In this document: piece by piece, positions 4,982 through 46,163 of the stretch | Numbering within the stretch: position 1 is the stretch's first letter | How the letters are laid out: each line of letters starts with the position of its first letter | NCBI GenBank assembly: GCA_019358935.1 | Contig: JAHHIK010000021.1 | Location: forward strand, 1-64,000 | Reading direction: 5' to 3' | Length of the DNA stretch: 64,000 nt | Source of the DNA: Tolypothrix carrinoi HA7290-LM1 | GTDB lineage: Bacteria > Cyanobacteriota > Cyanobacteriia > Cyanobacteriales > Nostocaceae | Program-made: the position numbers and the translations under genes | Notes under the pieces: generated by a model | Seen by the model: only the letters and a program-made list of their open reading frames with translations | Database searches by the model: none | Told to the model about the DNA's origin: nothing

Positions 4982-5948
4982 TTAATTATTCTCAACTAGC
5001 TTAACAGCTTTGCCAATGTAGCATACAGAAGTATCATCATTAATTTTGATTTCAAATAAACTACCTTTTTTACCTTTTTTTTGATTATTTAAATCCTTAA
5101 TTACAAGATTTATTAGCGTTTTCAAGTTAGTACCACCTGTCAAATCAAATCCTTTAATTAGATAATCTGCAAAGCCAGTCTTTTTCATGACATCAATCAT
5201 TTCCTGGGGTTTATTGAAGAAAGGCAGAGGGCAGGAGGCAGCTATGCTGAAGGAGCAATCGGATGGGGATTCAAACCCCAACCGATTGAATCCACCGTGT
5301 AGACGGTGGGGTTTTATACCCAGTTGGCTCCAGCCAGAAGGCTGAATCAAAGACATAATTTATACCTTCTGCCCTCTGCCCTCTGCCTTCTGCCTTCCGC
5401 CGAAGGCGGATAAACTTATTCCAATCGTGAAGCCCAGGCGGTATATACTTGAGGGTATCTTCTAAAAACCAAATGATTATAAATTTAGATTTCAAATTTA
5501 TATTAATTGTGTCAAACAAAAATAATCCATCTTTTTTTAAAACTCTATAAGCTTCATAAATAATTTTTTCCCAATCGTCAACATGCTCCAAAACGTCAAA
5601 ACATAAAACAATATCAAAACTGTTTTCTTTGTAAGGAAGATTTTCAGCTACTCCCCAACGATAATCAATTTTGAAATTACTTTTTTTAGCATGTTCTTGG
5701 GCGATATTAATTGAATTCAACGATAAATCTATCCCTGATACATAAGCGTTTAGCTTGGCTACGGATTCACAAGCCAATCCTCCTCCACAGCCAATATCTA
5801 AAACTTTAATTCCTTTCCAATCTGGCACAAAACTTGTAACAAACTCTCTTCTTGAGTTGTTAAGATGGTTAGACAGATATAAAGTTTCGTCTGACTTCCA
5901 CCATTTTTCTGCATTAAAATCGTAGTATTCTAAGTTATTTATTTTCAT
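4982..5948 (-). pseudogene. ubiG: UbiG-like SAM-dependent O-methyltransferase interrupted by a 196-bp element
   Basis: VLDIGCGGG and DVLEHV motifs. Removing 5214-5409 restores HDWNKFIKPQEM and a 256-aa frame. Confidence 0.88.
5214..5409 (-). mobile_element. 196-bp non-autonomous element (IS200/IS605-like ends), copy 1
   Basis: Reverse complement of 45968-46163. Follows TTTAT, ends TTCAA, no target duplication. Confidence 0.9.
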
Positions 5949-7508: not shown

Positions 7509-8407
7509 TTAATCACACAAAGCAGGAGCTTCTTTTTTGGTAAACACAGCCACCTCGGAGAGTGCCGTGGTCATGTAAGCACAAGCCATATGCGATGAGT
7601 TATACGCCCAACCTACTCGTCCCTGACTATCTAAGAGAATACACCCAGCCTCTCCTGTAACCTTAGATTTCAAAGTGTCGATCGCCTTCTGTGCTGCTTC
7701 GTCTGGGTGTCTATCTCCAGAAAGAAAATCAATCGCAGTTTTAGCCAAAACCACCGGGATAATCGACTCACCATCACCTGTGGTTGAGCAAGCGCCGAGT
7801 TTATTGTCAGCGTACAAGCCACAACCAACAACAGCACTGTCGCCGACGCGACCGGCTTGCTGATTCGTAGTGCCGCCAGTTGAGGTGCCAGCAGCTAAGA
7901 TACCGTTAGCATCCAAAGCCACACAACCAACAGTGTTGGGGCGCAAATCGAACTTCCTGCTCCTCCTTCCACTCTTGCCACTGCTCATCAGCAATCAAGT
8001 CTTCTTTTTTACACATTTCGGCTTTGTTGTCGGCGGCAAAGCGTTCTGCACCCCGCGCTACTAACAGCCTGGGTTTTTCATCCATAATTTTCCGTGCCAC
8101 CGAGATTGGATGACGCACGCCCTGAACTGCTGCGATCGCTCCCCAACCTAAAGAAGATCCATCCATGATTGCCGCGTCTAGCTCCACCTCTCCCTCGGTG
8201 TTGAGAGTCGCGCCCAGACTGGCGTTAAAGGTCTGGTCAGCTTCAAGAACACGGATGGCTGCCTCAACCGCTTCTGCGGCACAGCCTCCCCTAGTCAGCA
8301 CTGCCCAACCAGCCTCTACTGCTGCTTGACAGCCTGCATTATTAGCTGTAATCTTATCTTCGGAGATGCTTTTCGCTCCACCGTGAACAATAATTAGCTA
8401 GTGTCAT
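7509..8407 (-). pseudogene. iaaA: Isoaspartyl peptidase/L-asparaginase (Ntn hydrolase), two frameshifts
   Basis: IIVHGGA, VELDAAIMDG, NTVGCVALD, TSTGG, GRVGDS and TGDGE spread over different frames; shifts near 8395 and 7945. Confidence 0.9.
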
Positions 8408-45822: not shown

Positions 45823-45967
45823 TAAGGCGATCGCCTGTTCATCGGCTGCCCTAGGTATAATATTCGCTTATGAATCCCCACGTTTACCCGCCTCAGGAAG
45901 TAATTGACCCAAATATCCACCGACACCAACTTCGCGCCAAGTCTCCACTCGTTGGGGCGGAAGTTAT

Positions 45968-46163
45968 CCGCCTTCGGCGGAAGGCAGAAGGCAGAGGGCA
46001 GAGGGCAGAAGGTATAAATTATGTCTTTGATTCAGCCTTCTGGCTGGAGCCAACTGGGTATAAAACCCCACCGTCTACACGGTGGATTCAATCGGTTGGG
46101 GTTTGAATCCCCATCCGATTGCTCCTTCAGCATAGCTGCCTCCTGCCCTCTGCCTTTCTTCAA
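45968..46163 (+). mobile_element. 196-bp non-autonomous element, copy 2
   Basis: Same sequence as copy 1; follows GTTAT, ends TTCAA, no target duplication. Confidence 0.9.

Follow-up and report, generated by a model that had tools for sequence, protein, structure and literature searches.

How does a repeat of 196 nt, too small to encode a protein, spread through a genome, and what tells the enzyme that moves it where to cut? The question is raised by two copies of such a repeat in the window, the stretch of 64,000 nt analysed here (contig JAHHIK010000021.1, positions 1 to 64,000, forward strand) from the cyanobacterium Tolypothrix carrinoi HA7290-LM1. A sequence-only reading of this DNA had proposed that the repeat is a recently active, non-autonomous element that follows the insertion rules of IS200/IS605 transposons and is mobilised in trans by a Y1 (HUH) transposase. 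That proposal was followed up here through the genome-wide copies of the element, its anatomy, its relatives in other cyanobacteria and the transposases that might serve it.

Insertion sites and the interrupted gene

The assembly of the window genome (G000) comprises 7.96 Mb in 184 contigs of at least 10 kb. One window copy of the element (copy 1) lies at 5214-5409 on the minus strand, within a UbiG-like methyltransferase gene, and copy 2 lies at 45968-46163 on the plus strand, between genes. They are identical over 196 nt and have unrelated flanks. Throughout the genome 43 long matches were found, 37 of them full length and about 96-100% identical (96.4-100%), and 18 of these 37 are identical to the window copies. 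The tetramer TTAT, whose background frequency is 0.57% per position, stands directly 5' of all 37 full copies, and all 37 end in TTCAA. Position -5 is C in 0/37 (p 0.003 against background). No target duplication accompanies 35/37 copies; at the other two TTAT also stands directly 3', which could be read as a 4-bp duplication. The earlier description of two identical copies that follow TTAT, end in TTCAA and lack a duplication was therefore confirmed on 37 full copies, and the tabulation of flanks showed the left motif to be constant rather than variable. Because the 37 flanks differ, the duplicate copies are not an assembly artefact.

Precise insertion is also visible in the reading frames of the host. 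When the element was removed exactly, a frame of at least 150 codons was regained at 19/37 sites, and when the removal was shifted by 1, 2 or 4 nt this happened at only 0-4 of the 37. By this test the element interrupts a long open reading frame at 19/37 sites. The strand bias of genic insertions (17/22 in the sense orientation) did not exceed the TTAT background (p 0.27).

The clearest example is the UbiG-like SAM methyltransferase gene itself, read on the minus strand. Its 5' part occupies 5410-5948 and scores 152 bits on the TIGR01983 UbiG model (cut-off 103), with 89% identity to an intact ortholog in a related genome (G003). The target tetramer TTAT of copy 1 lies on the host side at 5410-5413 (minus). 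The 3' part occupies 4982-5213, continues the frame after exact removal and, by eye, matches the C-terminus of the same ortholog. The sequence-only reading had noted that exact removal of copy 1 restores this gene. Exact removal indeed yields an unbroken frame of 256 amino acids, with NKFIKPQE across the junction, and the ortholog carries the exact empty site with no bases gained or lost. An open-frame paralog, 53% identical to the interrupted gene, is present elsewhere in the genome (contig C3). Elsewhere in the window, at 7509-8301 (minus), two overlapping open reading frames look by eye like a single gene of the asparaginase type that a frameshift or short duplication has broken.

The same 196-nt element was found at 9/22 metagenome loci, and all 8 with a visible left end lie 3' of TTAT; these loci may derive from the same organism and were not counted as independent. 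The element lacks terminal inverted repeats and target duplications and is too short to code, which are features by which PATEs are recognised (PMC3119063). It is a gene-less, non-autonomous, PATE-like element of the IS200/IS605 type that has recently spread in this genome. The expected insertion rules of that group, namely a fixed tetramer on the upstream side, an end in TCAA and an empty site that is exact, were thus borne out, as were recent activity and the absence of a gene inside the element.

Architecture of the element

On the left the element begins with a small hairpin, which is optional. A first heptamer arm and an internal TTAT follow; next come the left and the right module, and a second heptamer arm, complementary to the first, leads to the terminal TCAA. 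In copy 2 (plus strand throughout) the left cleavage and target tetramer TTAT lies on the host side at 45964-45967. It is followed by the small terminal hairpin (45968-45980), which is absent or different in many sibling families, and by the left arm of GGCAGAR units (45981-46012), which pairs with the right arm. The internal TTAT (46019-46022; element positions 52-55) precedes the left module (46056-46085), in which a short GGG/CCC stem comes first and another hairpin, its loop reading CTAC, comes second. The loop of the first stem is 7 nt long and ends in the tetramer AAAA (46062-46065; element 95-98). The right module (46089-46121) is a hairpin of 13 bp in which pair 6 is a conserved mismatch; its 7-nt loop ends in the tetramer GAAT (46105-46108; element 138-141). 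The right arm of CTGCC-type units (46122-46158) then forms a spacer between GAAT and the right cleavage tetramer TCAA (46160-46163), the last bases of the element in 37/37 full copies. In copy 1 (minus strand) the left module occupies 5292-5321, with AAAA at 5315-5312, and the right module 5256-5288, with GAAT at 5272-5269. A pattern describing the two-hairpin core matched twice in the window and not once in 100 shuffles.

In canonical members of the IS200/IS605 group the guides stand 5' of the foot of subterminal hairpins, near the ends. Here the two candidate guides, AAAA and GAAT, are borne in the loops of central hairpins, 95 and 59 nt from the cuts (+95, -59). The element strand folds better than its shuffles (z -8.1 as DNA and -7.6 as RNA; 0/200 shuffles as good). 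For single-stranded DNA the predicted ensemble has the right foot paired at 0.98-1.0 and the left foot and stem only at 0.3-0.5, with both guide tetramers mostly unpaired. A canonical fold that would place the G run of the right module in the left hairpin was considered as well and set aside; it has probability 0.0 in the predicted ensemble. Both 7-nt loops (window 46056-46112) resemble the tRNA T-loop pattern, with T at position 1 and A at position 5. The guide reading accounts for these bases too, and no Rfam match was obtained.

The sequence-only reading had described a terminal hairpin, pairing heptamer arms and internal hairpins. All of these are present, and only the role of the first had to be revised: because many siblings lack the terminal hairpin, it is not a conserved determinant of the end. 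The end determinants are, as judged from covariation, the two central hairpins, whose putative guides are of the IS608 type and vary together with the ends.

Unusual copies bear on where the left cut may fall. On contig C52 a tandem joins the right end to element position 56, the base after the internal TTAT, and a lone 141-nt copy comprising element positions 56-196 stands on contig C2. No clean empty site was found for the lone copy: related genomes have other DNA to the left of the shared right flank, with no TTAT there. On contig C42 the tandem copies join the right end directly to the left end. The tandem junctions fit circle junctions and an alternative left cut, and the internal TTAT is apparently a second usable left cut that would give rise to a 141-nt form.

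Guide and end covariation

If the loop tetramers are guides, they should change together with the ends in related elements. In IS608, the guide GAAT serves TCAA and the guide AAAG serves TTAC; base 1 of the guide pairs with position -3 of the cleavage site, base 2 pairs with position -4, and two bases 3' of the foot form triplets (PMC5934647; PMC3201880). The IS608 rule predicts TTAT for AAAA and TCAA for GAAT. It was applied to 110 clusters, which comprise 269 cores and come mostly from the same family. A fixed-distance test covered the 64 clusters in which just one candidate tetramer stood 10-12 nt ahead of the core (46/110 had no scorable tetramer), and a family-level boundary test, with tolerance, used ends defined by where copies diverge.

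In the fixed-distance test the guide of the cluster itself predicts the left tetramer in 45/64 clusters (shuffled guides 19.8 +/- 3.2, maximum 31 in 20,000). At six other distances the same test gave 2/18, 0/11, 5/14, 4/11, 1/17 and 1/20. With copy-defined boundaries the rule fits 18/24 families at the left end (shuffles 7.9, maximum 15) and 24/27 at the right end (shuffles 10.4, maximum 19). It is missed in 19/64 clusters at fixed distance, at 6/24 left ends and at 3/27 right ends, and since the clusters are related the shuffles overstate the significance of all these counts.

The individual pairs cover several tetramers. On the left, AAAA, AAGA and AATA occur with TTAT; AAAT, AATT and AAGT with TTAA; AAAG with TTAC; CAAG with TGAC; and GAAG with TCAC. 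The last of these pairs was predicted before the flanks were viewed. On the right, GAAT occurs with TCAA, AAAT with TTAA, CAAT with TGAA, CAAG with TGAC and AAAA with TTAT. Two siblings (L013 and L016) share the inner hairpin of the window element, so that one hairpin is found with three different left guides, each accompanied by the matching target. Taken together, the loop tetramers are probably working DNA guides, a reading that we hold with good confidence.

Could the right loop be an exception? The right cut might instead be set by a different sequence, in trans or without much stringency, in which case the covariation of loop and end would reflect common descent or linear pairing of the two in an RNA or DNA pseudoknot. 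A dispersed and near-identical sibling of seven copies in the window genome (contigs C10, C13, C37, C67, C81, C112 and C124; for example C13:74670-74935) speaks for this alternative. It has the same TTAT and TTCAA ends, and a palindromic insert of about 50 nt replaces its right loop; no GAAT precedes the foot, and the sole GAAT lies in the left arm. That guide position is thus not strictly required. The right loop of the window element also holds a linear complement of the last five bases of the element, and He 2011 reports predictable retargeting from changes of GL, not GR (PMC3201880). Against this stand the 24/27 right-end families that fit the IS608 rule and the siblings with a canonical right hairpin, which keep the same rule. 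The behaviour of the fourth guide base also argues for a guide. Guide base 4 of an IS608-type pair is matched with position -1, and on the right side of these elements it tracks the last base of the end (CAAG/TGAC, GAAA/TCAT and AAAA/TTAT as opposed to GAAT/TCAA). This match is a cross pair, which linear pairing does not predict. A right loop without a guide function is accordingly rated as unlikely, and the guide reading is retained for both loops.

Related families and heptamer arrays

Other families in the window genome and its relatives combine the same two-module core with different arms. A tight core pattern was found in 14/37 genomes of the same family and in 1/263 others, with zero matches for the reversed control. 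A looser pattern was found in 79/150 same-family genomes, where the reversed control also matched in several genomes; because of this background the estimate of breadth rests on the tight pattern. A scan of the collection found the core in at least 118 stretches. Among the 80 matches listed, most are from Nostoc, Anabaena, Calothrix, Scytonema and Tolypothrix, with others from Okeania, Chamaesiphon and two non-cyanobacteria. A Brasilonema plasmid carries a close relative (95.7%). Three candidate core relatives (G022 C13, L030 and L031) were discarded because they are unrelated or match by chance.

Many siblings have a short left side, where the guide lies 16-18 nt from the cut like that of a canonical end, and a variable array of heptamers separates their right module from the right cut. 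Other siblings have a canonical right hairpin spaced by an arm about 35-45 nt from the cut and obey the same guide rule. For the analysis of arms 83 clusters were kept, after reverse readings and rare right guides had been dropped. A right-arm heptamer array is present in 65/83, with 22 heptamer types, and 40/83 have a right arm only. Both arms are present in 25 clusters, and they are complementary within one mismatch in 14/25 (shuffles 5.7 +/- 1.5).

Complementary arms are what would be expected if the repeat were a DDE-type MITE with the heptamer arms as its terminal inverted repeats; a repeat spread by gene conversion was weighed along with it. The TTAT found 3' of 2/37 copies could be counted on the same side, and Anabaena elements of similar size are catalogued as type II MITEs (PMC3542288). 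The arms stop short of the termini, however, 40/83 clusters have a right arm only, and 35/37 copies lack a duplication. The exact empty site and the strand-specific target, with its strict orientation of the element to TTAT, already largely refute a DDE element. We regard this explanation as extremely improbable and continue with an element of the IS200/IS605 type.

The heptamer arrays belong to the repeats known as STRRs, and the nested palindromes found in some siblings are presumably linked to the SDRs of Elhai; one of the catalogues of Anabaena and Nostoc MITEs is reportedly that of Elhai 2008. Arrays of the GGCAGAG type lie beside a module in 40/50 cases (background 0.9%), and two or three other classes do so in part. 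The idea that these elements are a general vehicle of STRR arrays was tried and rejected: the four commonest classes are near modules in only 0-3 of 133-192 cases.

Several variants were observed in passing. Nested palindromic inserts of 20-150 nt are frequent in heptamer arms and inner hairpins (L079, L080, L075 and L422), in elements whose ends are still kept. In L087, L088 and the copies on G000 contigs C112, C6 and C7, hairpin loops are inverted among otherwise identical copies. Five gene-less loci of about 250-500 nt (L386, L388, L391, L392 and L393) combine a loop-type left end with a canonical right end and are ordinary PATEs; a CRISPR-like array of repeats comes after L386.

Origin of the two modules

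Where do the two hairpins come from? Longer copies enclosing tnpA or tnpB had been proposed as a place to look, and the answer differs for the two modules. A tnpB element on contig C110 of the window genome shows the same left-end plan after TTAT and a canonical right end. Among 53 loci with a loop-type left end, our own queries found tnpB downstream at 27/53 and tnpA at 5/53. The tnpA genes of elements with a loop-type left end fall into one clade of seven rows (support 100/99), of which 5/7 show such an end, and the TnpA of this clade is related to that of IS608 (E 2.6e-21). Judged by its plan, the left module corresponds to the left end used by a cyanobacterial IS605/IS1341 family that codes for tnpA and/or tnpB. 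No coding element carrying the right module was found among the 218 loci and window-genome cores examined or at the 22 metagenome loci. What is shared with tnpA-coding elements, all of them in other genomes, is the plan of the left module. At G000:C148:1754-1782 (minus), a loop-type left end with the guide GAAA is found immediately beyond an IscB-domain gene, on the opposite strand.

The right module is conserved as a structure. Its stem covaries: the paired fractions sum to 6.84 over the 83 clusters, whereas shuffled partners reach 4.05 +/- 0.17 and slid partners 2.8-3.7. Watson-Crick pairing occurs at pair 6 in only 12%, and the base on its 3' side is T in at least 65/83 clusters; a pyrimidine occupies the equivalent position in 35/43 canonical right ends. 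We infer, with somewhat better than even confidence, that the right module is a circularly permuted right end. As the G strand and a 3-nt tail precede the right guide, the cut cannot adjoin the foot and would be reached through the arm. Flexible spacing from guide to cut has an experimental precedent in excision by GstTnpA (PMC10055086).

The sequence-only reading had also suggested that the right end could be an omegaRNA-like scaffold, with the flanking DNA as guide, and the element might then double as a guide-RNA cassette for TnpB or IscB acting in trans. The genome has 43 matches to TnpB domains and 7 to IscB domains, PATEs often encode omegaRNAs (PMC10055086), and the RNA of the element folds stably (z -7.6, as above). 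The comparisons of the right end itself went the other way: no Rfam match was found at E<=5, and a profile built from 43 canonical right ends of the IS605/TnpB type gave nothing beyond word matches of 10-18 nt, in searches that could miss distant scaffolds. The right end also lacks a terminal canonical hairpin, and its arm varies widely, as the 22 heptamer types among 65 clusters illustrate. A cassette function is considered very improbable, and the right module is treated further as a transposon end.

Candidate helper transposases

A gene-less element depends on a transposase from elsewhere. Seven Y1 genes were found in the window genome, five of the IS type and two with the motifs of TnpA-Y1 subclass 1.2. 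None of the seven belongs to the clade whose elements share the left end, in an assembly without contigs under 10 kb. A 14-member repeat cluster in this genome bears a TTAT-targeted canonical left end of contig-end length, and helper genes may therefore be missing from the assembly. No tnpA is linked to cores in the 218 loci and the window-genome cores, and none at the 22 metagenome loci. Cores and the candidate clade co-occur without a significant association (28/45 versus 51/105; Fisher p 0.15), and one genome assembled into five contigs (G153) has cores and no intact IS-type tnpA. An IS605 element on contig C133 of the window genome has an open tnpA and uses the same guide/cut pairs in canonical form. 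We tentatively propose the clade whose elements share the left end as the helper, at somewhat less than even confidence; that one of the other TnpAs in the genome cross-mobilises the element is about equally likely. In L226, the only close core/tnpA match, a sibling element is inserted into the tnpA of an IS605 element.

A helper of another kind would leave the class of mobility unchanged. A domesticated Y1 nuclease, either TnpA-Y1 subclass 1.2 or RAYT, could cut at distant sites as in REPINs, and TnpA-REP has been reported to cut at distant sites (PMC8266576). The two subclass 1.2-type genes of the window genome are flanked by palindromes with GAAT in the loop and then a second hairpin, and the genome without an intact IS-type tnpA (G153) has genes of this type in addition to cores. 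The details of the element favour an IS-type helper instead. Its left module matches the left ends of coding IS605 elements in plan and spacing, its cut sites are IS-type tetramers and not CT/CA, the units that flank the subclass 1.2 genes are inverted pairs of other sequence, and a core-rich genome (G083) has no Y1 match in the score range of that subclass. A domesticated helper thus seems quite unlikely next to a TnpA of the IS type.

The two subclass 1.2-type genes deserve mention in their own right. L006 (G000:C51:17950-18294) and L007 (G000:C46:32571-32882) have the motifs WQ and Y---Q--HH, and on their flanks stand inverted units of two hairpins that show GAAT in a loop. Units like these recur at scattered places in the genome, frequently arranged in inverted pairs. 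The part of the survey by Quentin 2018 covered here lists no REP for TnpA-Y1 subclass 1.2 (PMC6006769), so that these units may be unrecognised substrates.

Proposed mechanism

As a whole explanation, we consider it highly probable that the repeat is a non-autonomous, gene-less element of the IS200/IS605 type that moves in single-stranded form by means of a Y1/HUH TnpA supplied in trans. The transposase would bind the two central hairpins on the top strand; AAAA would pair with TTAT and GAAT with TCAA, and both sites would be cut. The element would then close into a circle and the donor would be resealed exactly, as the chemistry of IS608 suggests. The circle would insert 3' of another TTAT. 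The heptamer arm may act as a length-tolerant tether that returns the cut site to the right guide, and in the window copy the paired arms could bring the two cut sites together at the base of a single long stem. By analogy, precise excision would make the knock-out of genes such as the UbiG-like methyltransferase reversible.

A wider generalisation is, in our estimate, evenly balanced: that these elements form a large superfamily, hitherto unrecognised, of mini-transposons that move as single strands in heterocystous cyanobacteria. Its members would have a circularly permuted right end and a loop guide that reaches the cut tens to hundreds of bases away via a heptamer tether, would have acquired at least 5 left and at least 5 right tetramers by natural retargeting, and would have spread one subset of STRR arrays. 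If true, the ends of IS200/IS605 elements are more modular than the IS608 layout, admitting a loop guide, a permuted hairpin, a distant cut and a variable spacer, which bears on the engineering of TnpA-based scarless insertion. It would also give a mechanism to the widespread duplication-free, gene-interrupting repeats of these cyanobacteria and explain part, and only part, of their heptamer arrays.

Comparison with known systems

How does the element compare with mobile DNA already described? The REP/REPIN system and TnpA-Y1 subclass 1.2 share with it a mismatched hairpin and tetranucleotide guide, distant cuts and non-autonomy (PMC6006769; PMC8266576). The window element differs in having neither a GTAG guide nor CT/CA cuts and in inserting within genes, and its modules lie on one strand in direct order and are not inverted.

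The MITEs of Anabaena and Nostoc described by Wang 2012 resemble the element in size range and in disrupting genes, but they are classed by inverted repeats, and the part of that catalogue covered here gives no Y1 mechanism or guide rule (PMC3542288). Among the Group 1 MITEs of Anabaena sp. 90 are elements with lengths of 147 and 154, which differ by one heptamer (PMC3542288). Judged by these lengths, siblings of the element may already be catalogued as MITEs without a mechanism. Earlier cyanobacterial MITE catalogues are those of Wolk 2010 and Fewer 2011 (as cited in PMC3184786). In the literature searched, with ISfinder and the older MITE catalogues outside its scope, no description of loop-displayed or permuted IS200/IS605 guides was found.

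Cyanobacterial IS605/IS1341 elements with the guide in the loop of the left end (for example G000 C110, L317, L326 and L332) have the same left plan and the same guide/target pairs, and the short-left siblings share their guide spacing of about 16-18 nt. They differ in carrying tnpA and/or tnpB and, where it was seen, in a canonical right end next to the cut.

With IS608 of Helicobacter pylori, the right pair GAAT/TCAA is identical and the left pair is one base from AAAG/TTAC; the CCCC/GGGG foot, an unpaired stem base and T at the triplet-forming position are also shared (PMC5934647; PMC3201880). The guides of IS608, however, start at +16 and -35, on the 5' side of the hairpin foot; those of the window element stand in loops at +95 and -59. 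The G strand of the window element precedes the guide, and tnpA and tnpB are lacking.

PATEs resemble the element in their way of life: gene-less, without terminal inverted repeats or duplication, with a fixed terminal oligonucleotide, in homogeneous multi-copy families and presumed to depend on TnpA in trans. Their palindromes lie near the termini, within a terminal region of 20-50 bp (PMC3119063; PMC4810608), whereas the conserved palindromes of the window element are central, its terminal hairpin is optional and heptamer arrays separate its guides from its ends. The element works like a PATE or an IS608 mini-element but lacks subterminal hairpins with the guide 5' of the foot, and it is therefore set apart from the canonical members. 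To conclude, its class of mechanism is known, and the architecture of its ends is apparently undescribed.
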